Origin: Candidatus Zixiibacteriota bacterium
Lineage (GTDB): Bacteria > Zixibacteria > MSB-5A5 > SM1-73
Assembly (NCBI GenBank): GCA_049694315.1
Contig: JBAVQU010000015.1
Location: 53,712 to 117,711, forward strand
Length of the DNA: 64,000 nucleotides
Reading direction: 5' to 3'
The notes beneath the pieces were generated by a model that ran no database searches, was not told the DNA's origin, and saw only the letters and a program-made list of their open reading frames with translations. Of the stretch, positions 5,578 through 45,830 are shown one piece after another (positions within the stretch are counted from its first letter, which is position 1; every line of letters begins with the position of its first letter). A program made the position numbers and the translations under genes.

Positions 5578-5669
5578 ATCCGGATGACGAATGACGAAAA
5601 CCTCACACCCTGTCTCCTCCTCTCTATGAAGTGCAGAGTGGGATGGGGGGAGAGGTAGAAGGAGGACGT

Positions 5670-6014: not shown

Positions 6015-6080
6015 TTTCGCCCGCCTTATTATCGGGATAATTTTCTGTTGAAGTCGGACAAGACGAATTCGCTCTTTTGA

Positions 6081-6140
6081 CCTCACCCTCTATTCCCCCT
6101 CTCCATCTTATGGAGAGGGGGACAAAAGGGGGAGAGGTAG
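6081..6140. repeat. Intergenic nested-palindrome repeat, copy A
   Basis: CCTCACCC...TTCCCCCTCTCCAT-ctt-ATGGAGAGGGGGA...GGGGGAGAGG. Confidence 0.7.
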
Positions 6141-13099: not shown

Positions 13100-13873
13100 T
13101 TCTCACTCCTTAGTTTTAAGGGTTCAAAGACTCAGAAGTTCAAATGCCATAAGAACAATACTGCGCGAAAAAAACAAAACCCAGCTTCACGGCGAAGCTG
13201 GGTGAAATGCTATTTCCCAAAGACCTCTTCCCGCGAAGAGCAATGGAATATGAGTGTTAGGGCAATTCACGAATTGCCCCACCGTTAGACCTAATTCCTA
13301 AATCAAGCCTAACTTACACGAATTCGATTTGATCGGTCTCCTGACTTTATGGCTTCGAACCTACTCGCTTCCCTTCCCGTCCCCCGGTTGGTTATTGGTT
13401 CGTGGTTCATGGTTCGTGGTTAAAAGCTTTCACCACGAACTACGAACTCCGAGCCACCAACCATCCCGCCTTCGGCGGAATAGAACAGTGGTTATTGAAG
13501 CTTTCGTAGCCACTTACAGTAGCGGGGCTGTGGCGGATTTTCACCGCCTTCCCTTTACCCCATTTGGGGCATCAAATCGCTGTTGGTTTTGTCAGAGATC
13601 AAATTCAACTACATTATGTCTGATCCAATATTTGAAGTCAAGAGAAAAACCATTTTCTTCTCAGGTCGTGGCGTCTTTTTCTGTCATCCTGAGGGAATCC
13701 CGCCTTTTGCAGGACCAAAGGTGAAACGTAAACCGTCCCTTCTTGGTCAAGCTGAAGCTTGACACTCCAAAAACCTTTCCTTGTTTACCTCTGAGAGCTC
13801 CTTTTGTAGTTGCCCAATTCATTGGGCGATTTTCCACTCGATAAGCAGACGCTCCCGTCCGGGAATCGAACAA

Positions 13874-14866: not shown

Positions 14867-15080
14867 TGGACAATCCCGGCCGGATGAATCCGGCGATTTG
14901 AGTCATCAAGGACCCGTTCAATATAACGGAAGACTGTTTCAAAGCCAATACAAACTCTTGGTCAATTCGTTCAAGTCCATCACAAGAAAAAACCTTTGGT
15001 GCGTTTACACCAAAGGTCAAACAAAAAGAAAATCGCCATAGAGGACTATGGCCGTCTCCAGGAAATTCAGAAATCAACGC

Positions 15081-15224
15081 CTATTTCTTCTCTTCCTTCA
15101 TCCTTCTGACGCTATTGGACAGGCATTTGGGGCAGGCGCGCTCGATTAAAGGTGCTTTGGGATCAAAGGGCATCTTGAATTCATGTCCACAACGTAGGCA
15201 TTTAAAATTCGCTTCTTCTGGCAT
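15081..15224 (-). CDS. FmdB-family zinc-ribbon protein
   Basis: MPEEANFKCLRCGHEF...CPKCLS: two CxxC pairs. The start is taken at the internal Met of the track ORF. Confidence 0.45.
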   Translation of the reverse strand: MPEEANFKCLRCGHEFKMPFDPKAPLIERACPKCLSNSVRRMKEEKK

Positions 15225-15394
15225 ATAACTCTCTCCAATTATCACACGTAGCCAAGCCTTCACGGCCTGGGATCGAGCCGAGGGATGAACCCTCGGCTAC
15301 GCGCTACATTATTATGATGTTAAACTCTCCCCCTCACCCTATCCCTCTCCCCCAAGGGGAGAGGGTAACAAATCCTCGCTTGTCTATATTATAC

Positions 15395-17923
15395 TCACAC
15401 CACTGCCTTTTCCAACTTCGCTTTGTCCGCTTCCAGCTTGGCTCTTCTTTTTTCTCCTTTGAATTTGAGATCCGCCAGCGCTTTCTTGGTAAACTCTACC
15501 TCCTCTTTTGTGACTCTCTTCCTCATCTCCTCAACTTCTTTCATCACCTTAGCGAACTTCTGTCCTTCTGCCGCGCTGATCCACTCCAGTTGAAGTCTTT
15601 CCGGTCTTATTCCCATCTTCTCTAATTTATCCCACAGCTTCTCTACTCTTTTCACTGTCCAGCGATTCGCATCGATATAATGGCAATCCGCAAAATGACA
15701 GCCGGAAACCAAAACTATGGGAGCTCCCAGCTTGAAAGCATAGAGCACGAATTCCTCATCCACCCTGCCGGAACACATGGTTTTGATGATCCTCTGATTG
15801 GGAGGATACTGCAAACGGGATATTCCAGCCATGTCCCCTCCTGCATAGGAGCACCAGTTGCAGGCAAACACCACCGTCTTATCCTGAGGATTCTCGTCTA
15901 AGATGGCCTCTATCTGAGCGAGGATTTGGCTGTCCTTGAAGTGTCGCATGGTGACCGCGCCAAAAGGACACTCTGCTCCGCAAGTGCCGCATCCGGCACA
16001 CGCGGCTTCGATGATCTCCGCCGGTGTCTTCTTCTCCCGATCCACCAGGATACACTTGTAGGGACAGGCCCGATAACAGATCTCACAGGCAGTGCACATC
16101 TCCTTGTCCACCATTGAGGTTATCGCCTCTACCTTGATTCGATCTGCATTCAGGATGATCTCCGATCGGGCGGCAGCAGCGCCCGCTTGGGTAACGCTGT
16201 CCTTAACGTCCTTGGGGAATTCTGCACAACCCGCGTAGAAAACCCCTTTGGTGGGTGCATCCACCGGCTTTAGCTTGGGATGAGACTCCATGTAAAATCC
16301 ATCCGGGGTGCGAGAGAGGGTCAAAAGCTTCTGGATGGTGCTCCCGTCCAGTCGGGGCAAGACGCCTACGGAGAGCACCAGCATCTCCAATTCATGCTGT
16401 TCCACCTCACCGGTGGTGGTGTTCTCCACGGTGACGATCAGGTTTTTGGTCTTCGGATCCTCCATCACCTCTCCGGGCAAGCCGCGGATGTACTTGACTC
16501 CCTCCTCTTTGCTTCTCCGGTAGAGATCCTCAAACGCTTTCCCGAAGGCCCGGATATCCATGTAGAAAACTTTGATTTCGGTATCAGGATAATGGTCTTT
16601 CAAAAGGACTGAGTCCTTTATGGTGTTCATGCAGCAGATATTGCTGCAATAGCGATTGCCCCTTTTTTCGGACCTGGATCCCACACACTGAATGAACCCA
16701 ATGGTCTTGGGCGTTTTTTGATCAGCCGGACGGATGAAATGCCCCTGTGTGGCACCGCTGGCACAAATCAGGCGCTCAAATTCCATGGAGGTGATCACAT
16801 TCTCGAAGCTCCGATAGCCGTATTCATCCAGCTCCGTGGGATCATAAACATCCATTCCTGTCGCTACAATGATAGCTCCTACCTTCAGATCAATCATCTC
16901 ATCTTGCATGTCGTAGTCGATGCACTTTTTCTCACACACCTCCGAGCATTTGCCACAGGCAATGGGGTTGTTTCCTAGACAGGCATTCATGTCGATCAAA
17001 TAGGCAGAAGGGACCGCTTGAGGAAGCTGCAAGTAAATGGCTTTCCGAGAGGAAAAACCCTGTTGGAAACCATCTGGAACCGCCACCGGGCAGACCTTAG
17101 CGCATTCTCCACAGGAATTACAGTCCTTCTCCCTCACGTAGCGTGCTTTCCTTCTGACCTTCACTTCGAAATTGCCGACATAACCTTTAACCTCTTCCAC
17201 CTCGCTATAAGCCAAGAGCTTTACTCTGGGATGTCGACCGACATCCATCATTTTCGGTCCCAGAATTCATATGCTGCAATCCATGGTGGGATAGGTCTTG
17301 TCCAAAGCCGCCATGATGCCGCCGATGGATGGTTCCTTCTCCACCAGATAGACCTGAATGCCAGCATCCGCTAAGTCTAAAGAGGCTTGAATTCCCGCCA
17401 CTCCCCCACCAACGACTAATGCTGCTTTTGTAACAGGAACCGTCTTTTCGATCTGCGGCTCCAAGTATCTGACCCTGGCTACTCCCACCTTCACCATGTC
17501 CTTGGCCTTTTCTGTAGCACCCTTGCGGTCATGCAAATGTACCCAGCTGCAGTGCTCTCTTAGGTTCACCATCTCCAAGAGGTAGGGATTCACTCCCACG
17601 TCGGCCACACACGCTCGGAAGGTCGGCTCGTGCATACGAGGAGAGCAGGAAGCTACCACCACCCGATTGAGGTTGTGCTCCTTGATATACCGCTTGATCT
17701 CATTCTGTCCCGGATCAGCGCAGGTGTATTTGTTCAGAACCGACACCGCCACATCCGGCAGGGTCTCGGCGTACTTACGCACCGCCTCGCAGTCCAGCGA
17801 TCCGGCGATGTTCAAGCCGCATTCGCAGACAAACACCCCGATTCTTAGATCATTTTCCTTTCCTGGTGTTTTCTTGTCAGCCACCACATTCACCTCCTGG
17901 GCTTTGATACAAGAGCAAGTCAA
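15395..17923 (-). CDS. hdrA: Heterodisulfide reductase subunit A fused to a C-terminal MvhD domain. Selenoprotein with an in-frame TGA at 17267-17269.
   Basis: The track ORFs 17267..17923 and 15395..17251 share one frame and are separated only by the TGA. Read-through gives ...DKTYPTMDCSI-U-ILGPKMMDVGRHPRV..., the HdrA C-S-x-C/U motif. FAD motif [16 protein letters not shown]. Ferredoxin-type Cys clusters. The C-terminus [14 protein letters not shown]...SGCHFADCHY is an MvhD domain. Confidence 0.8.
17226..17263 (-). promoter_or_regulatory. Candidate bacterial SECIS hairpin downstream of the hdrA UGA
   Basis: mRNA CUGGGACCGAAAAUGAUGGAUGUCGGUCGACAUCCCAG, with apical hairpin GGAUGUC-GGUC-GACAUCC starting about 23 nt after the UGA. 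Confidence 0.55.
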
Positions 17924-18049
17924 ATTCAGAGATTCATTCAGTTCTCCGATCCAAACTTCCGAGGATAAATTGGAGTGTTCACCTTCAGGTGAACCAAGTC
18001 AAGCTGAAGCTTGACACTCCGGTAAATTCCTCTTGTGTATCTTCTAATG

Positions 18050-18481
18050 CTATGGCTCGAAAATTCTCCTTCCACCTTCCCAGCTATCCCACCATTCAAT
18101 TCTCTTTGGGTTAATCTTCAATAAGCAGAACTCCTCAGATTCGGGACCTTTCGGAAAGTGCTGGGAAATATCATAAGGAGCTAGCCCCCAGACTCTTTTC
18201 TTATGTTCCAAGTCTTTCGTAATCTCAGCTTCGCCGACTATGATGGCGGATTTGTCGCCAGACGGATGCTGGACAAAACTCAGGCAGATTTTGGGATTCT
18301 GTTTTATCTGTTTCACCTTCCTGGAGCTGGCGGAAGTCGCCACCCACACAGACATGTCATCTTCGACAATCGGAGAAACCGGGCGGACTTGCGGCTGATC
18401 GCCATCCGAAGTTGCCAAGAATGCAAAGAGACAACACTCTTTCATTATGTCGACCATTTTCTGTTTGTCAGAGGAACTCAT
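18050..18481 (-). CDS. Pyridoxamine 5'-phosphate oxidase-like FMN-binding protein
   Basis: 143 aa. The pattern (LATSDGDQPQVRPVS...VWVATSASSRKVKQIKQNPKICLSF) fits the PNPOx-like split-barrel family. Confidence 0.55.
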   Translation of the reverse strand: MSSSDKQKMVDIMKECCLFAFLATSDGDQPQVRPVSPIVEDDMSVWVATSASSRKVKQIKQNPKICLSFVQHPSGDKSAIIVGEAEITKDLEHKKRVWGLAPYDISQHFPKGPESEEFCLLKINPKRIEWWDSWEGGRRIFEP

Positions 18482-18575
18482 TCCTCACTCCTTCATTATA
18501 TTCATTATGAAAGTACCCGATTGCAACTTCTTGCGGTGACGGAGAAGTCATCCATTGTCACCAAACACTTCATGT

Positions 18576-18704
18576 CATCGCCCCAGCAAACAACGTGCTC
18601 AAATCGACAATTCTTAGTCTTAACTCCTCTGAATAGCCCTCGGCGTTCTGGGTGCAGGAGAAATGAATCTGGCATTTTGGACAGGCGGTGACCCAAACCA
18701 CTGC
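18576..18704. repeat. Direct repeat copy 1 (pseudo 3' end of the hdrD-like gene)
   Basis: About 129 bp at roughly 94% identity to 19276-19404, which are the last ~43 codons of the CDS at 19270..20400. Confidence 0.7.
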
Positions 18705-18724
18705 AACCTTTGACTTAATTGACG

Positions 18725-18934
18725 TTATTTGTGTGCAGTTGTAGATTGGTAATGAGCCACAAGCTCTCGAACTTTAGAGATAAGTTTGTTGGGAACCTCA
18801 ATGAAGGTTTGTCCCTTCTCCTCGAAAGCCGCTTCGTCTTCTGCCACCGCCTCTTCTTCAGTTTGTTGCTCGTAATGAGCTATCACCCGTCGAACGCGCT
18901 CTTCATCCCAACCTGGTGGAAATTTGCTCTTCAT
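18725..18934 (-). CDS. BrnA-like antitoxin (type II TA)
   Basis: 69 aa, acidic, downstream of and overlapping the DUF497-like toxin gene by 4 nt. That arrangement is typical of BrnT/BrnA. Confidence 0.45.
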   Translation of the reverse strand: MKSKFPPGWDEERVRRVIAHYEQQTEEEAVAEDEAAFEEKGQTFIEVPNKLISKVRELVAHYQSTTAHK

Positions 18935-19218
18935 CTCCTGAATCTCCTTCGTCTACGTCTTCTATACGCCATCAATGGTTTCCCTTTTAATTCGTACGCC
19001 GTTATGACGAATACGCTATCCGGCTCTGGATCTGGAACATAAACAACCCTAAGATATCGACCTGATTTAGTCTGCCCAATTGCTACACGTGAACCCTCAC
19101 GACCGGCCCGATCCTCACCCGACTTCATTAGGACTTCCTCAACTTCATTTTCTATGACTCCATGTTTATAAAAATGAGGCTGTCGTGTTTCTGGATCAAT
19201 ATAATAGCGTATTTGCAT
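18931..19218 (-). CDS. BrnT-like toxin (DUF497 family)
   Basis: 95 aa: MQIRYYIDPETRQPHFYKHGV..EVEEVL...RVAIGQTKSGRYLRVVYVPDPEPDSVFVITAYELKG, the DUF497 pattern. Confidence 0.5.
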   Translation of the reverse strand: MQIRYYIDPETRQPHFYKHGVIENEVEEVLMKSGEDRAGREGSRVAIGQTKSGRYLRVVYVPDPEPDSVFVITAYELKGKPLMAYRRRRRRRFRR

Positions 19219-19269
19219 AATCTTCCGTGATCAAGACGTCCTCGAAAACAACCTCAGTCATGCCCTTAT

Positions 19270-20400
19270 TTATGTTATCGCCCCGGCAAACAACGTGCTC
19301 AAGTCGACGATTCTTAGTTTTAAGTCCTCTGAATAGCCCTCGGCGTTCTGGGTGCAGGAGAAATGAATCTGGCATTTTGGACAGGCGGTGACCAAAACCT
19401 CTGCTTGGGTATTCTTTGCCTCCTTCAGCCGATTCGTCTGAATCATCTTGGAATAGACATCACAGTTCACCCAGGAAGAGGTTCCGCAGCAGGTGGCATT
19501 CTTTCTGTTTCTGGGCATCTCCACCAGCTCCGCCCCGGAAGCCTTGATCACTTCTCTGGGTGCGTCAAACACGCCACTGAACCGCCCCAACCTACAAGGG
19601 TCTTGATACGTAACCTTGGTATCCAGTTTCTTCAGCTTGGTCCTGTCTTTTGGGATCTTCTCGGAGATCAGCTCCGATATGTGAAGGACTTCATAGTCTT
19701 GCTTTCCGAACATCTCCGGATAGTCGAATTTCAGGCTGACCAGGCATTCGGGACACGAGGTGACGATCTTTTTCGCCCCGGATTCTTTTATCAGCTTCAG
19801 ATTGTGTTCTGCCAGCTTTTTGAAGTTCTCCACGTCCCCCATCCACAGAAGATCATGCCCGCAACACCTTTCGTTGGCCAACACCTGTGGCTGGATGCCC
19901 AAGAAGTTCAGAATCTTCAGAGTCGACTTTCCCGATTCGATGGAGTTTGCTTTGATGTCCGTGAAGAAAACGTCGAAATAAGGGAGGCATCCGACAAAAT
20001 AAAGATATTCGGACTTCTCTGACGTCTTCAGATCCGGGGTGATCCATCCTAATCTATTTTGTTTCAGCTCAGGTGCGGTCATGATTTTCATCAATGACTG
20101 CAGGGCCCCGCCATGAGAGCACTTGGCGTCTTGCCCGTTGTTACTGGCTTCAGCTCTGACTAACCGGGTGAACTGGATGTAATCAATGTCGGAAGGGCAT
20201 TTCTGCTGGCACTGCATGCAGGTCAAGCAGGTCCAGACCGTATTATCTTTCAGCAGATTTTCATTGGAGCCGGTCACCGCCTTGGTCATAAGTCTTCGCG
20301 GAGAATAGCCCTTATTAACTCTGGAGATAGGGCAGATGGCAGTACATTTGCCGCAGTCTAAACAGAGATAAGCTTTGGTGTTCTTGATGGATTCTTTCAT
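19270..20400 (-). CDS. HdrD/GlcF-like iron-sulfur oxidoreductase (two 4Fe-4S motifs plus two CCG domains)
   Basis: CLDCGKCTAICP and CLTCMQCQQKCP, then CCGHD...C and ...CCGTSSW cysteine-rich CCG-type motifs. Confidence 0.7.
   Translation of the reverse strand: MKESIKNTKAYLCLDCGKCTAICPISRVNKGYSPRRLMTKAVTGSNENLLKDNTVWTCLTCMQCQQKCPSDIDYIQFTRLVRAEASNNGQDAKCSHGGALQSLMKIMTAPELKQNRLGWITPDLKTSEKSEYLYFVGCLPYFDVFFTDIKANSIESGKSTLKILNFLGIQPQVLANERCCGHDLLWMGDVENFKKLAEHNLKLIKESGAKKIVTSCPECLVSLKFDYPEMFGKQDYEVLHISELISEKIPKDRTKLKKLDTKVTYQDPCRLGRFSGVFDAPREVIKASGAELVEMPRNRKNATCCGTSSWVNCDVYSKMIQTNRLKEAKNTQAEVLVTACPKCQIHFSCTQNAEGYSEDLKLRIVDLSTLFAGAIT
19276..19404. repeat. Direct repeat copy 2 (authentic 3' end of the hdrD-like gene)
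   Basis: Partner of 18576-18704. The two copies bracket the 571-bp segment that carries the BrnT/BrnA pair. Confidence 0.7.
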
Positions 20401-20508
20401 ATCATGTTAGCCTTTGCAAGTTCCAGAAGCGAAATTCAAAAATGTCGTCTGGGTCATCCCGGAAATAGTCTGCCCTTCTTTTCTTTTCGAATTTTGAATT
20501 GTACTTTT

Positions 20509-20952
20509 TCATTTTGCATTTTGAATTTTGAATTGTCTCAACGGGCTTGGTCCCACTTTCTTCACATCCTCTATGAATTGCGTGATCACCTGGGCAAATC
20601 TTTGACCTTCAGCGGCTGAAAACCACTCCAATCTCAACCGCTCCTTTTCTAAACCCAGAAGCTCGAAGAGCTTTTTGGTGATTTCGAACTGCTCCGCAGC
20701 TCGATGATTGCCAAAGGTGTAATGGCAATCGCCGAAATGTCACCCCGACCACATCACGCCGTCTGCACCTTTTTCAAATGCTCGGAATACGTGGGCTGGG
20801 CTGATCCTGCCGGAACACATCACGCGGATGAGCCTTACATTTGGTGGATATTGCATCCGGCCCACCCCGGCAGTATCTGCTCCTGCGTACGAGCACCAGT
20901 TGCAAGCGAAGACGACGACTCGGGGATCAAAATCATTCGATTGTTTTGTCAT
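20509..20952 (-). CDS. mvhD: Methyl-viologen-reducing hydrogenase delta subunit homologue (MvhD). Selenoprotein with an in-frame TGA at 20740-20742.
   Basis: Read-through of the track ORF 20740..20952 gives [17 protein letters not shown]...[18 protein letters not shown]...[13 protein letters not shown]. This aligns residue for residue with the MvhD domain of the hdrA fusion in this window (VLVSG-C-HFADCHY), with the UGA at the Cys position. Stop TGA at 20509-20511. Confidence 0.7.
20706..20730 (-). promoter_or_regulatory. Candidate SECIS hairpin downstream of the mvhD UGA
   Basis: mRNA GAUUGCCA-uuacaccuu-UGGCAAUC, an 8-bp stem starting about 11 nt after the UGA. Confidence 0.45.
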
Positions 20953-21066
20953 ATTACTATTTCCTTAATGGACATAATCTGTGTGATACATCGGCATTAG
21001 GAAATGTCGATGCCATAAAAAGCTTCAGCAATTTCCATTGTCGAAACATCGGGAATACTCGCTTCA

Positions 21067-22050
21067 TTATAAGAAGGCAACCGTTTTATTCAAACCTAAA
21101 TAGTTAAGTTCGTCTTGTGTAAAGGAATCCAAATTACTGAAGACTAATTCAACGAATTCATCACCATCTACAAAAGATATCTTCTTACACTCTTCCCTAT
21201 AGTATTTCTCAGCTAACTTCTTTGCGTCATCCGAAATACTACCCGACGTTACGATAATCCCCGTATCCCCTTCATCCATTGAATTTGCTAATTGCTCCAC
21301 TACCCAACTATCAAGGGCTCCATGCTCGGGATAAAAATGCTTAACTTGTATTCTAACAACAAGGTTCCCAGGTAGAGTTGTTTTTAGATCAGTGTCTCCT
21401 TGCTGGCTGTTTGTAGTTGCCAACCTTGTGAGACCAGGAAAGTACCTATTGAGAACAGTTCTTACGCTTTCCTCAAACCTGGATGAGTTGACGCCCGACA
21501 GTATCCCCTTTTGTAACTTGTCAAGATACTCTATTTTCAGATCTAGATAGTTTTGACAGCTGAACAAGTGCTTTTGGGTTTTGACAATATCGCTTATATC
21601 TTGATGATAAGTGGCAAAAAGCGTTTGTTGTCCTTTCAAAGAATCAAAAACTCGTCCAGTTAAGACCGACCGGGGAATGGCGCGTTTTTCATTCAGCCAT
21701 TCAACTTCTCGTTGATGTGGATAACCATCCGTATCATTGTCTTTGGAATTATCGTATCGATAATCGCTTTGTACATATCCAACAAATACAACTGGCCCAT
21801 CAGGAACCACAACATAATCTTCAATTTGCATTTCATTTACAAAGCGGTTAATAATGCCAACAGCTTGCCCTAAGGATTGATTAGAAGAATACGAATAAAA
21901 CGTTTGCAAAGCCTGTTTGATTTGCTCTCTGTTTTTTCCTACTAGATTCCCTATGTAGGGCCAACCAATTGCCACCAAGTTCCCCACCAAGAATTCTTTC
22001 ATTCTATATTTATCGTGTGGATAAGATCGTAATACCCAAGCATTACTCAT
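21067..22050 (-). CDS. Mrr-like restriction endonuclease-domain protein (type IV restriction-like) with an uncharacterised N-terminal domain
   Basis: The C-terminal region GDTDLKTT...VVRIQVKHF...DTGIIVTSGSISDDAKKLAE matches the Mrr catalytic-domain pattern (D...(Q/E)xK, IvTts.fs..A). The gene sits in a clearly AT-rich island. Confidence 0.5.
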   Translation of the reverse strand: MSNAWVLRSYPHDKYRMKEFLVGNLVAIGWPYIGNLVGKNREQIKQALQTFYSYSSNQSLGQAVGIINRFVNEMQIEDYVVVPDGPVVFVGYVQSDYRYDNSKDNDTDGYPHQREVEWLNEKRAIPRSVLTGRVFDSLKGQQTLFATYHQDISDIVKTQKHLFSCQNYLDLKIEYLDKLQKGILSGVNSSRFEESVRTVLNRYFPGLTRLATTNSQQGDTDLKTTLPGNLVVRIQVKHFYPEHGALDSWVVEQLANSMDEGDTGIIVTSGSISDDAKKLAEKYYREECKKISFVDGDEFVELVFSNLDSFTQDELNYLGLNKTVAFL

Positions 22051-22129
22051 TCCTTACCCTCGCTTCTAAGATAGAATTAAGGTGTAATTGATTAGCATGA
22101 CAATCTATCCCATGTTCGCTATTTGTTTA

Positions 22130-25100
22130 TTATTTATCCCAAACCAACAGCGTATCTATCATCACATCTATCTGCTCATCTGTGAAGTGGCGAGCTGTTA
22201 TTGCACCGGTGGGGCAGTATGCCGCGCAGGTGCCGCAGCCTTTGCACAAAGCTTCGTTAATCTCACAGACCAAAACGCCTTCTCCCTTATCTACCAATTG
22301 TGGCGCGTTAAATTGGCATATCTTCACACATATTCCGCAGGCTCGACACAGTTCTCTATTTACCACTTGACAGACCACCGGCTCAAGCTCGATGTGATCT
22401 CTGGACGTAAGGATAGCTGCTTTGCCCGCTGCTCCCTGGGCGGAGAACAGACTATCTGATATTCCCTTGGGGGAATGTGCACACCCACAGATGAATATCC
22501 CCGCGGTATTCGTCTCCACCGGTCCCAACTTGGAGTGCCTCTCCAAGAAAAATCCATCCAATCCCCTTGGAACCTTGAGAAGACTCTGAAGCTCGGCAAA
22601 ATCTTTCTCTTTCGGCACCATGCCCACGGAGAGTATCACCGCATCCACTGGCAGTTCCGTCTCGGCTTTGGAATGAGGCTGAAATAGCTTGATCTTGGTC
22701 GCTTTTCTGTCTCCAATTATCTCCGGCGGATGCTTCTCATCGTATCTTAAGAACAAAACCCCTGCACCTCGCGCCTCCCGATATGCCTCTTCCGCACCCT
22801 TGTCGAAAGTCCTGATGTCCCTGCAGTACACTATAACGTTGATTTCCTTTTTCTGAAGCTCGGTAGCTTGTTTGATGGCTACCTGACAGCAATATCGGGA
22901 GCAGTATTCGTTTCCGCCTTTCTCCCTTGATCCCACGCACTGGATGAAAGCAACGTTCTCCGGCTTCTGGTTGTTGATCTTCAACTCCTCCTGGTTCTCT
23001 GTCATCAGCTTTTCCAATTCCATGTTAGTGAGAACATTGGGGAATTGTCCATGGCCGAATCTGCCTTGGGGATCAAAAAGATCCGAGCCGACCGCCAGGA
23101 TGATGGCTCCGAACTTCAGCACCCCATTCTTGGTCTTCTTGCCCTTGGCGGATGCGGGCATCTCTAAAGTCACCTCAAAATTGCCGACAAACCCGCTTAC
23201 TTCCTTCACCTTAGAGGAAGTGAGCACCTTGACTTTTCTCTCCTTCAGCTCTTCTAATTTCTGTTTGATCAGCTGCTTACCCGTCAGCTCACTCCCCAAA
23301 AGACTACCCAGATCCTTTACCCTTCCACCCAACTCCTTGTCCTTATCGATCAAAGTCACTTTCTCGCCTTTGAGCGCCAAATCTAAGGCCGCCTGAATTC
23401 CCGCTATGCCGCCGCCGATTATCAAGATCTCTGGATTCATGGGGACCTGCCTTCTCTCCAAAGGCTCCAGATGATAAGCTCTGGCAACCGCCATGCGCAA
23501 AAGGTCTTTTGCCTTTGTAGTTGCCGCCTCTGGCTCCTGGGAGTGCACCCAGGAGCACTGGTCCCGGATGTTAGCCATCTCAAAGAGATATGGATTGAGG
23601 CCGGCTCTCTTGCAGGTTTCCTGAAAGATGGGCTCGTGCGTGCGGGGAGTGCAGGCCGCCACCACCACCCGGTTCAAGTTTTGTTCCTTGATCTTTTCCG
23701 CCATGAATCTCTGAGTTCCATCCGAGCACATAAAAAGGTCGCGACAGACATAGGTCACTCCGGGAAGCGACTTGGCATATTCCTCCACCTCTGCCACGTT
23801 CACCACTCCAGCGATGTTGATCCCGCAATGGCAGACGAATACTCCGATCCTCGGGTCTCCGCTTACGTCCAGAGGTTCGACTTTGATCGGCTCTTTCTTC
23901 AATTGCTGACCTTTCAGATGCTCTGAAACCTTCAACGCGGCGGCGGAACCCAAGGCTACTGAGTCGGTGATGTCTTTAAGTCCGGCAGCGCTGCCACAAA
24001 GATAAATCCCGTCTTTAGTCGACTCCATAAAGGAGGTGGAATCTCCCTGCTTGAAGAAGCCGGTTTTGTCCAGCTCGATTCCCAAAATCTGCGCCAGTTT
24101 GGCCGTCCCCTCAGCCGGGACTCCGGCAGACGACAGAATCACGATATCCGCTCTCACTTTCTCCACGGCCTTGGTATCCATGTTCTCAATGAAGAGCAAG
24201 AGGTCCTTGGTTTTTGGATCCTCTTCGATCTTGGCCGGCTTTCCCCTGTAAAATATGACATTCGGATCCTGCTGTGCCCGCAGGTACAACTCCTCGTATC
24301 CTTTGCCGAAAGCTCTTATGTCGTTGTAAAAGATGTAGATCTTCTCGATGTCCGGTTGATGCACTTTAGCTAAAAGCGAATTCTTGACGGTGTTCATGCA
24401 GCAGAAGTACGAGCAATAAGGATATCCTCTGTCGCCTACTGATCTGGAGCCGACGCACTGGACAAAAGCCAGAGTCTTGGGGGGTTTCATGTCGGCAGGA
24501 CGGACCAGGTGACCACCTGAAGGCCCGGAGGCATTCAGAATTCTTTCGAATTCGAGTCCGGTCAGAACGTTCTCGTAACGAGCGTAGCCAAAATTGGTCA
24601 GGCTTCGTGGATCGTACTCGTCGAAACCGGTGGCAACTACGATGGCACCGACGTCAACCGTCTCCTCCCTAGGCGGCATGTCGAAATCAATGCACTTGAG
24701 TTTGCAGGCCCGGTAGCAGTTTTCGCACACCAGGATGGTCTTGTTAAGGCAGGCTTCACGATCAATCACATAGGTTCGGGGGGATGCTTGAGGGAAAGGA
24801 GTATAGATGGCTTTTCTGGCTCCCATTCCTAAGTCGAAAGAGTTGGGAGCAATCACCGGACAAGCCTTGGCGCAATCACCGCATCCCACGCAGGCGTTCT
24901 CGTCCACAAAGCGGGGGTTTCGTCTAACCGTGGCCTTGAAATTCCCCTTTTCCCCTTCCACCCGGACCACTTCAGAATGGCTTAAAAGCTTTACATTGGG
25001 ATGTCGACCGACATCCAGCATGCGGGGACCCAGAATTCAGATGGCGCAATCCATGCTGGGAAAGGTTTTGTCGATCTGCGCCATCCTACCCCCCAGGGTG

Positions 25101-25207
25101 GAAGCCCTCTCCACCAAATAAACCTGAAAGTCGGCGTCGGCTAAATCGAGGGCCGCCTGAATTCCAGCCACCCCTCCTCCGATGACCAATGCACCTTTCT
25201 TTGTCAA
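22130..25207 (-). CDS. hdrA: Tandem-domain HdrA homologue (two HdrA-like modules). Selenoprotein with an in-frame TGA at 25037-25039.
   Basis: Extending the 963-aa track ORF upstream in frame gives (V/L)[74 protein letters not shown].... An AGGAGG RBS and a GTG/TTG start lie at about 25205-25210. There is a second FAD/ferredoxin module ([18 protein letters not shown]...) and a C-terminal ferredoxin motif. Confidence 0.75.
24999..25016 (-). promoter_or_regulatory. Candidate SECIS hairpin downstream of the second hdrA UGA
   Basis: The same 18 nt, GGAUGUCGGUCGACAUCC, as in the first hdrA, about 21 nt after the UGA. Confidence 0.55.
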
Positions 25208-25455
25208 CACAACCTCCTACAGGCAGTTCCGAGTTCAGAGTGTAGAGGAAGCAGTTCAAGGCCAAGAGCTTAGAGCAACAACCTTTGATCTCAAACTCGA
25301 AACTCTCTGCTCTTAACTCTATGCTATCGACTCTGGCTTGCCCATTTCAAAGCCTCTTCCCGAACTGTTGTCTTCGGTCGAAGGTTTGATGGTAGCCGCA
25401 CCCTTCAGGGTGCGCTTGCTTCGCAGGCTGAAGCCTGCGGCTGCGAATTCCTCCT

Positions 25456-26007
25456 CTAAGCGGTCTGCTTCAACAAACTCTTCCCGTATTGATAACCTTT
25501 GTCAAAGGCCTTTATATTGACGTCGATCAACTTTTCGCTAAAAGAATCCTGAATCGCCTTGCGCGCGGACTGCTCTGTGGTCAACTTGGTGACCGCGGTG
25601 AAGAAGCCAAACATCACGATGTTGGCCGCGATTCTTGCTCCCATCTCCTCGGCCAAGCGGGCGGATGGTATGGAAAAGAATTTGGCTCTCTTCTTCACCT
25701 GGTCCGGCTTGACCAAATCCTCATCGATGATTAAAGTTCCATCCTCTGTTATGTTGCTCGCATGTTTGGAATATCCTTCTTGCGACATGGCCACTACGAT
25801 ATGCGGTGTGGTCACATAGGGATACAGAACTCTATCGTCGGATATCACTACCTGGGAACTGCAGGCACTTCCTCTTGCCTCCGGTCCGAAGCTCTGGGTC
25901 ATGGTGGCGTGTTTGCCGTCGTATATGGACGCGGCCTTCCCCAAAAGATATCCGAAACGGATCACCCCCTGACCGCCGAATCCGGTGATCCTTATCTCTG
26001 TCAGCAT
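25456..26007 (-). CDS. 2-oxoacid:ferredoxin oxidoreductase, gamma subunit
   Basis: MLTEIRITGFGGQGVIRFGYLLGKAA..., typical of the Por/Vor/Kor gamma subunit. Confidence 0.8.
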   Translation of the reverse strand: MLTEIRITGFGGQGVIRFGYLLGKAASIYDGKHATMTQSFGPEARGSACSSQVVISDDRVLYPYVTTPHIVVAMSQEGYSKHASNITEDGTLIIDEDLVKPDQVKKRAKFFSIPSARLAEEMGARIAANIVMFGFFTAVTKLTTEQSARKAIQDSFSEKLIDVNIKAFDKGYQYGKSLLKQTA

Positions 26008-35329: not shown

Positions 35330-35555
35330 TGAAGAATGGCGGATAAAGGATGACGAATGAAGAGGCGGGATGAATTGCCGCCCCCTTGGAGGTTGTGTAA
35401 CGGTCGCACGGACGTGCCCACCTCGGCATTTATGCGACCTACCTGTTCGATAAATCGAACCGTCACAAATAAGCTCGATGAATCGAGCAACTACGGATTC
35501 CCCCTCTCCATTTTATGGAGAGGGGGATCAAGGGGGTGAAGTCTACGGTTTTATC
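35330..35555. repeat. Composite repeat copy (GATGACGAATGA motif plus nested palindrome)
   Basis: GGATGACGAATGAAGAGG ... TTCCCCCTCTCCAT-ttt-ATGGAGAGGGGGA...GGGGGTGAAG. Confidence 0.6.
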
Positions 35556-42600: not shown

Positions 42601-42660
42601 ACCTCTCCCCATCTGTCCCCCTCTCCATTTCATGGAGAGGGGGATATCGGGGGTGAGGTT
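42601..42660. repeat. Intergenic nested-palindrome repeat, copy D
   Basis: CCTCTCCCC...TGTCCCCCTCTCCAT-ttc-ATGGAGAGGGGGA...GGGGGTGAGG. Confidence 0.7.
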
Positions 42661-42671
42661 TCTACAGAGAG

Positions 42672-45732: not shown

Positions 45733-45772
45733 TGAATTTGATCTCTTCTGTTGCCTACGTTTACCTCTCCCC

Positions 45773-45830
45773 TTTAGTCCCCCTCTCCTTGTCAAGGAGA
45801 GGGGGATACAGGGAATGAGGTTTAAACCTT
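45773..45830. repeat. Intergenic nested-palindrome repeat, copy E
   Basis: CCTCTCCCC...GTCCCCCTCTCCTT-gtca-AGGAGAGGGGGA...GGGAATGAGG. Confidence 0.7.

Follow-up and report, generated by a model that had tools for sequence, protein, structure and literature searches.

Direct repeats that duplicate the 3' end of a gene, with the gene itself kept intact, are the classic footprint of insertion by an integrase. We have analysed such a bracket in an uncultured Zixibacterium (Candidatus Zixiibacteriota bacterium, GenBank assembly GCA_049694315.1, contig JBAVQU010000015.1, positions 53,712 to 117,711), in which two copies of the 3' end of an hdrD-like gene enclose a small toxin-antitoxin (TA) pair; the whole 64-kb stretch is referred to as the window, and coordinates count from its first base unless another locus is named. 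Direct duplications around foreign DNA have also been described from recombination anchored on homology. In E. coli, 56 of 60 events were single crossovers of recircularised DNA, which left the insert between duplicated stretches of the homologous locus, 109-950 bp long, and 4 were events of homology-facilitated illegitimate recombination (HFIR) (Amarir-Bouhram et al. 2011, PMC3240628), for which de Vries & Wackernagel 2002 and Prudhomme et al. 2002 are precedents (as cited in PMC3240628). The HFIR model has further been invoked for orphan gene ends in the arrays of type VI secretion systems (T6SS), Rhs proteins and contact-dependent inhibition (CDI) systems (Kirchberger et al. 2017, PMC5361080). 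On the side of the cargo, DUF4258 is listed among the type II toxin families of the BECR fold, with activity unknown and no member experimentally examined, and DUF4258-MqsA fusions have been reported (Gerdes 2025, PMC11980606); the family has also been placed in a colicin-like/Ntox49 branch (bioRxiv 10.64898/2026.08.28.747851).

The repeat in the window is 136 nt long (18569-18704 and 19269-19404, with 9 mismatches, 93.4% identical) and the 64 kb have no other direct repeat that exceeds 100 nt at 90% identity or more. An earlier note on this DNA had claimed a 129-bp repeat of the hdrD-like 3' end with about 8 mismatches; the repeat is real, and alignment lengthens it by 7 nt. The two copies start exactly 700 nt apart and leave 564 nt between them (18705-19268). 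These hold only two open reading frames (ORFs), of 95 and 69 amino acids, both co-oriented with hdrD and overlapping by 4 nt, which bears out the claim that the intervening segment (571 bp in that note) contains exactly two genes. Within the repeat lies a perfectly identical core of 69 nt (18625-18693 matching 19325-19393); none of 100 dinucleotide shuffles yielded any match.

The hdrD gene, both repeat copies, the spacers and the TA genes all lie on the minus strand, and read on this strand the 136 nt are the final 43 codons and the stop of the 376-aa coding sequence at 19270-20400, with homology ending 1 nt beyond the hdrD stop codon. Copy A (19269-19404) provides the functional last 43 codons and the TAA stop of hdrD, and copy B (18569-18704) is a displaced 3'-end fragment of 43 codons with a TGA stop. 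Copy B is a 43-codon ORF with no more of hdrD in front of it, and its counterpart in a related locus (L022) holds an early in-frame TGA; copy B is thus a dead, non-functional fragment and not part of a second intact gene. hdrD itself remains intact because its end exists twice. The earlier description of a remnant and a replacement gene end thus agrees with what we find. A left spacer of 50 nt (19219-19268) runs from the hdrD stop to the ATG of the first cassette gene and is kept with the cassette in relatives, and a right spacer of 20 nt (18705-18724) ends at the junction with copy B. The sequence at this right junction, CAATTAA.T.AAAGGT.GCAGTGGTTTG, is the same in the window and in four related loci (L022-L025), and the illegitimate joint lies directly before GCAG at 18704/18705. 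As for integron gene cassettes, neither the right nor the left spacer holds an inverted repeat of the attC kind, and the cassette sits within a metabolic operon.

We compared the window with related loci, mostly those in metagenome-assembled genomes (MAGs) of Zixibacteria, in which the operon order hdrA2 - mvhD - hdrD - PNPOx-like - hdrA is kept. The best HdrD matches come from these MAGs, whose hdrD orthologues share 76-89% amino-acid identity and a conserved gene order. The PNPOx-like gene (18050-18481, minus strand; 143 aa; Pfam Pyrid_ox_like 1.6e-16) is the downstream neighbour that marks the ancestral hdrD-PNPOx junction. In six relatives (L005, L010, L020, L046, L051 and L053) this gene follows hdrD after a gap of only 29-42 nt. 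Because relatives with the same gene order have so short a gap, the TA pair and one repeat copy, 700 nt together, are an insertion into the ancestral junction, as the earlier note had proposed for the hdr cluster. Over the empty-site relatives as a whole the PNPOx-like gene begins 29-97 nt past hdrD, and in the window it begins 87 nt past copy B; copy B has kept the ancestral spacing to the gene that follows.

The cassette at hdrD is not private to the window genome and occurs in at least two other lineages. Loci L022-L025 are four independent contigs from different samples (L022-type sources: JGI 3300056887, 3300060621 and 3300062553, and Logan SRR35817099), and each has the full layout: behind hdrD come a left spacer of 50 nt as in the window, both TA genes and the shared right junction into copy B, and the repeats are 700 nt apart here too. 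Their toxin (P0001) is 96% identical to that of the window. The left spacer is identical at 45 of 50 positions between the window and L022, and the same spacer is found in L083 and L026. L083 represents a third lineage with the same layout of hdrD, spacer and TA pair; its 972-nt contig ends in the partner gene, before the right junction. In the more distant L026-L028 the pair also stands behind hdrD, with a homologous left spacer and a toxin that is 83% identical, and is followed by an MqsA-like zinc-finger ORF and by no copy B. L045, the closest relative by HdrD (89% amino-acid identity), is without the pair; what remains there is a deletion scar, made up of 14 nt from the start of the left spacer and the final ~57-65 nt of copy B. 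These states are patchy on the HdrD tree, in which the window (with TA pair) is sister to L045 (scar), L022 (with TA pair) to L046 (empty), and L027 (with TA pair) falls with the empty L051/L055. Among them these loci show an empty site, a deletion scar, and filled sites that share an identical junction across lineages that have diverged, and the steps are directly legible from them. In L022 (8700-9077) and L045 (6299-6673) a 125-aa retropepsin-like gene (Asp_protease_2) stands directly after copy B; it is not in the window.

The cassette differs from its surroundings in age and composition. Between the window and L022, synonymous divergence (pS) in six flanking core genes (two por genes, hdrA2, hdrD, the PNPOx-like gene and hdrA) is 0.55-0.68, pooled 0.62 (bootstrap 0.59-0.65), and in the two TA genes it is 0.22 and 0.29, pooled 0.25 (bootstrap 0.16-0.33). 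A base-by-base alignment with L022 shows a tract of 88-98% identity from ~19265 to ~18660, which takes in both TA genes with the spacers on either side and reaches ~45 nt into copy B, between flanks at ~80-86%. L083 shows a similar contrast, with TA genes 91-93% identical to those of the window and the 3' part of hdrD 79-80%. Because pS in the TA genes is 0.25 against 0.62 in the flanking genes, we infer that the cassette has moved between lineages after their split, one cassette allele probably having been exchanged together with its copy B junction. Intrinsically slow evolution of the TA genes was considered and ruled out, since against L026 their pS (toxin 0.68, partner 0.48) is roughly like that of two flanking genes, hdrD and the PNPOx-like gene (0.60-0.75). 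GC content at third codon positions (GC3) is 0.32 in the toxin gene and 0.41 in the partner gene, as against 0.55-0.65 in core genes, and the codon composition of the cassette is thus foreign.

The similarity of the two copies to each other is a different matter. Copies A and B are 81% alike in L022 and 93% alike in the window, and both window copies carry GGGGCG, TCCAAAATG and CAGAACGCCGAGGGCTATTCAGAGGA, which no other hdrD end does. At the same time the junction-proximal GTG and TGG of window copy B, along with an ATT codon and the TGA stop, are shared with copy B of L022. The window copies have therefore evolved in concert, by gene conversion across 700 nt or by a fresh re-integration, and the identical core within copy B (18625-18693, minus strand; 100% to copy A) is the tract concerned. 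Concerted evolution means that repeat similarity says nothing on the age of the original event, and flanking repeats of this kind are unusable for dating an insertion. The 93% similarity does not date the insertion, given the derived bases that the window copies share and the 81% in L022. The 'recent insertion' of the earlier note does not hold for the window genome, given the same cassette in L022-L025 and L083 and the scar in L045; relative to the core genes, with pS at 0.25 against 0.62, it does.

The toxin gene (18931-19218, minus strand) encodes a basic protein of 95 aa (pI 10.1) that scores 28.2 bits against Pfam PF14076 (DUF4258; cut-off 25) and 15.9 bits (E 0.017) against the BrnT/DUF497 family PF04365, below its gathering score of 34.5. 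We found 5264 homologues in many phyla; the best 120 of these 5264 are 73-96% identical to the window toxin, and most of these 120 have a precomputed PF14076 match. JGI names several homologues 'DUF497 family'. An AlphaFold (AF2) model built with 25 homologues (pLDDT 91.6) has a BrnT-type, RelE-like fold, with BrnT (3U97) as its top Foldseek match in the PDB (E 2.3e-3, prob 1.00, TM 0.60/0.72, rmsd 3.3 A), followed by a chain of a Salmonella TA complex, HigB2 and RelE. Searches by sequence in the PDB, whether the query was the toxin, a profile of 25 members or the partner, gave noise only and no BrnT match, and NCBIfam gave nothing for toxin or partner. An exact-protein look-up returned no record for either the window toxin or HdrD, and the PLSDB plasmids and INPHARED phages gave no tblastn match to the toxin. 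The earlier label of a DUF497 (BrnT-like) toxin thus stands for the fold and not for the family, which is DUF4258 with a BECR/RelE-type fold. The model and the sequence relationships together suggest that the toxin is most probably an RNase of BECR/RelE type that would be kept in check by its acidic partner.

The partner gene (18725-18934, minus strand) overlaps the toxin gene by 4 nt and encodes an acidic protein of 69 aa (pI 5.3), the presumed antitoxin. Searches at E<=10 gave no Pfam or NCBIfam family besides noise and no PDB match; neither the BrnA nor the ribbon-helix-helix (RHH) model matched, and the 'BrnA-like' label of the earlier note is unsupported. A single-sequence AF2 model of low confidence (pLDDT 67.6) is all-helical and has no N-terminal strand. 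A homologous partner of 65-73 aa follows the toxin in every context examined, more than 10 different neighbourhoods; the same family stands behind the toxin at hdrD, at a gene for an SLH protein, at guaB, at a DUF3795 gene and in a TA island of Nitrospinae. Against L022 the ratio of nonsynonymous to synonymous divergence (dN/dS) is ~0.09 in the toxin gene and ~0.05 in the partner gene, and both genes are under purifying selection. The pair thus has the generic features of type II TA modules: small, adjacent, co-oriented and translationally coupled genes, a conserved pairing, purifying selection, and a basic toxin with an acidic partner. We regard it as a putative type II TA module and a new member of a catalogued family, with the toxin presumed to be an RNase.

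Compared with described DUF4258 toxins, the pair shares the above-threshold Pfam match, the small basic protein and the tightly coupled small partner gene, and the MqsA-like zinc-finger gene after the pair in L026 recalls the DUF4258-MqsA fusions (PMC11980606). It differs in gene order, the toxin coming first here and the order being A/T in the table of that paper (PMC11980606), and in its acidic partner of 65-73 aa, which is without a recognised DNA-binding domain; the zinc-finger gene is missing from the window. It shares the order of toxin then antitoxin with BrnT/BrnA of Brucella abortus (PF04365; PDB 3U97), the solved structure that best matches the predicted toxin fold, at 20% identity over 81 columns. 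Unlike that system, the toxin falls below the BrnT Pfam cut-off and has no PDB sequence match, and the partner is without a BrnA or RHH match.

A systematic self-comparison of 50 related loci (458 kb), set to find direct repeats of 40 nt or more that lie not more than 3.5 kb apart, gave about a dozen, nearly all of which lie against one end of a conserved gene and enclose accessory DNA. Of the hdrA2 3' end, 48 nt are duplicated around a HicBA pair in L022 and 55 nt around a segment with a different HicB-like gene in L048; 112 nt of the hdrA 5' end surround an MNT/HEPN pair (L059), 113 nt of the mvhD 5' end an MntP gene (L003) and 71 nt of the hdrD 3' end two unknown genes (L011). Outside Zixibacteria, a DUF4258 pair in L029 stands between two copies of 45 nt from the 3' end of an SLH/peptidase gene, and in L074 a DUF4258 pair lies 32 nt behind guaB, with a 32-nt piece of the guaB end after it. 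In L030, L031, L032 and L034 the cassette has moved, together with the downstream SLH-end fragment, to a place with other sequence upstream; the unit in common extends from -151 to +660-700 relative to the toxin start. No bracketing repeat was found in three other DUF4258 contexts (L076, L080 and L037). The Zixibacteria hdr/mvh operon is thus a hotspot in which several TA families and other small cargo occupy gene boundaries, often with a duplicated gene end, and if the pattern is general, gene-end brackets could provide an easy computational sign that accessory genes of uncultured bacteria were acquired by a homology-anchored route.

Two further observations concern these sites. On the Desulfobaccales-like contig of L074 (2897-3602), the guaB-end fragment behind the DUF4258 pair is itself followed by a 21-nt fragment of an older toxin gene, which looks like sequential displacement of cassettes at one gene end. 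Further TA modules in the same hdr operon (L059, 3441-5903; L022, 5058-6181 and 9570-10362) comprise a zinc-finger gene with HicBA behind hdrD, two HicBA pairs behind hdrA2, and MNT/HEPN before hdrA; two of them are the bracketed modules named above, with duplicates of 112 nt from the 5' end of hdrA in L059 and of 48 nt from the 3' end of hdrA2 in L022.

As to how the bracket in the window arose, we lean, with a little more than an even chance, towards homology-anchored integration at the hdrD end, of Campbell type or by HFIR, followed by lateral exchange and homogenisation of the copies. The bracket would have formed, with the hdrD end as anchor, from one homologous and one non-homologous join. 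Either a fragment with the TA pair and a piece of the hdrD 3' end circularised and entered by a single RecA-type crossover (Campbell-type insertion-duplication), or a linear fragment entered by HFIR with the illegitimate joint 136 nt inside hdrD; both routes would duplicate the homologous segment, keep hdrD whole and leave the cargo co-oriented. Later the cassette may have been passed among related lineages, at the same site, by homologous recombination in the flanks, and in the window genome gene conversion or re-integration may have homogenised the copies. The element would thus have been inserted by a known kind of recombination, and both of the processes proposed are already known.

This explanation accounts for a direct anchor duplication that brackets the insert, an intact target gene and empty sites in relatives, and the recurrence of like scars at other gene ends also speaks for it. 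The foreign DNA between repeats, the 136 nt falling within the range of 109-950 bp and the whole target are as in the laboratory events (PMC3240628). Those were plasmid events, however, and here a natural allele is fixed in several lineages, with repeats that have since diverged and been re-homogenised. In the arrays of T6SS effector-immunity, Rhs and CDI loci (PMC5361080), an incoming module that anchors on a conserved gene upstream likewise pushes the old end downstream as an orphan, and the older toxin fragment behind the guaB-end fragment in L074 is a further likeness; the displaced piece at hdrD, in contrast, is the end of a housekeeping redox gene, and no array of immunity genes builds up. 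Several observations weigh against integration anchored on the hdrD end. No donor molecule, no circle and no microhomology at the illegitimate joint were seen, and the two sub-routes are not separable. A strict Campbell insertion of one and the same circle in each lineage predicts that part of copy A is as young as the cassette, which is not seen: the codons of copy A give a pS of 0.60 between the window and L022 (only 28 synonymous sites), like the rest of hdrD, and the two copies A are 84.6% identical. The young tract ends no more than ~17 nt from the hdrD stop, which needs crossovers at the edge or later allelic recombination in hdrD. Nor do a phylogeny of the 136 nt, their nearest-neighbour identities, a split into 5' 80 and 3' 56 nt, or the type of stop codon mark one copy as resident and the other as imported; the stop codon is no marker because stop codons vary freely among lineages.

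The same facts can be read in other ways. The TA pair and its gene-end fragment might be a selfish, recombinase-free, 'homology-addressed' cassette that cycles between the integrated state and a 700-bp circle, excising by recombination of repeat with repeat and re-entering by a single crossover, with the fragment as address label and the TA pair penalising loss. The same cassette and junction in several lineages with their low pS, the fragments of upstream gene ends that accompany the DUF4258 family at three unrelated genes (hdrD, the SLH-protein gene and guaB), the SLH-end fragment that travels in L030/31/32/34, and the older toxin fragment of L074, as sequential displacement would leave it, all point this way. 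Yet scars of the same kind bracket cargo other than TA pairs (MntP, unknown genes), for which a general by-product of recombination suffices; no circle or excision product was seen, the TA pair of L045 was lost by imprecise deletion, the L076, L080 and L037 contexts are without a bracketing repeat, and no homologue that could point to a vehicle was found on the known plasmids of PLSDB or the phages of INPHARED. We consider such a cycle unlikely. The wider idea that small TA pairs spread without a recombinase of their own by means of a host-gene-end 'address', the circle re-entering behind the same gene in any genome related closely enough and so restoring the bracket, with the hdr operon of Zixibacteria as an arena for DUF4258, HicBA and MNT/HEPN, is rather doubtful, if somewhat less so. 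Site-specific integration would make the repeats attL and attR of a decayed or trans-mobilised element resembling a cis-mobilisable element (CIME), with an att site in the hdrD 3' end and the integrase elsewhere. The anatomy of the repeats matches the classic integrase footprint, the target is regenerated as in islands in gene 3' ends and CIMEs, and the site has been re-used by different cargo (a zinc-finger gene with HicBA in L059, the aspartyl-protease-like gene in L022/L045). Unlike such islands, the bracketed 564 nt hold the two TA genes only and no recombinase; the repeats vary from 32 to 136 nt and are drawn from five genes, some from the 3' and some from the 5' end, with no common core by eye and none visible among the hdrD, hdrA2, hdrA, mvhD, guaB and SLH brackets; and the extra 125-aa gene after copy B in L022 added no third repeat copy. 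These points make an integrase origin distinctly unlikely.

A duplication of hdrD, or a tandem paralogue, might have come first and been mostly deleted down to 136 nt, with the TA pair captured independently. By nearest-neighbour identity of the 136 nt, copy B groups at 82-84% with the hdrD ends of L026, L045 and L022, of the same clade, which is compatible with an origin in situ. None of the ~50 related loci has a tandem hdrD or a longer fragment, however, every carrier has the left edge of copy B joined to the TA spacer at one and the same nucleotide, and brackets of this type are found again at other genes, precisely around inserted cargo; we rate this order of events a shade lower still, as improbable. 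An uncultured Zixibacterium as source would in principle allow a chimeric assembly, in which the MAG had wrongly joined the hdrD ends of two strain variants; the same architecture with its 700-nt spacing recurs in four independent assemblies from different samples, which leaves an artefact scarcely credible. On the favoured reading, integration anchored on the hdrD end, the locus is an ordinary but instructive natural case of a TA pair entering genomes and moving between them without a transposase or integrase.

The HdrD-like iron-sulfur protein (19270-20400, minus strand; 376 aa) has an N-terminal 2x[4Fe-4S] ferredoxin domain (Fer4) and two CCG domains (Pfam CCG 9.9e-29, Fer4_8 3e-10). The TA pair begins 50 nt past the hdrD stop in the orientation of the operon, and a scan of 17900-20600 for promoters and terminators gave no signal above chance, which together make read-through of the pair from the hdr operon plausible. 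An Rfam search of 15000-26000 found no family.

Other features of the operon deserve brief mention. A gene of 327 aa resembling Mrr_cat restriction endonucleases (21067-22050, minus strand) lies between hdrA2 and mvhD. In relatives its position is taken by 87 nt (L007), one or two HicBA pairs (L022, L046, L003), HicB-like ORFs (L048) or MntP (L003). A bracketing repeat was looked for around the window gene and none was found; the Mrr-like gene is a second, different insertion in the operon. The L051/L055 operons form a mosaic against window positions 15395-20400, with HdrD 76-78%, PNPOx 86% and the HdrA N-terminus 96% identical, a pattern that indicates recombination breakpoints within the operon.

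We also noted in-frame TGA codons in the mvhD/FlpD-like gene (20509-20952, minus strand; TGA at 20740-20742, VMWSG-TGA-HFGDCHY as compared with VSGCHFADCHY in the HdrA C-terminus) and in hdrA (15395-17923, minus strand; TGA at 17267-17269, PTMDCSI-TGA-ILGPKMMDV). Both sit where paralogues have cysteine, the mvhD codon is kept in relatives (e.g. L003), and they are probably selenocysteine codons. hdrA2 (22130-25021) seems likewise to have a short N-terminal piece split off upstream. An inverted repeat, GTCAAGCT-GA-AGCTTGAC, occurs twice with similar downstream bases, upstream of hdrA (17998-18015) and upstream of a TonB-receptor-like gene (13746-13763), and is possibly a shared operator. Finally, five hairpins resembling repetitive extragenic palindromic (REP) elements (CCCCCTCTCC...GGAGAGGGGGA) lie in intergenic positions at 5600-5660, 6079-6139, 35484-35544, 42601-42661 and 45763-45823.

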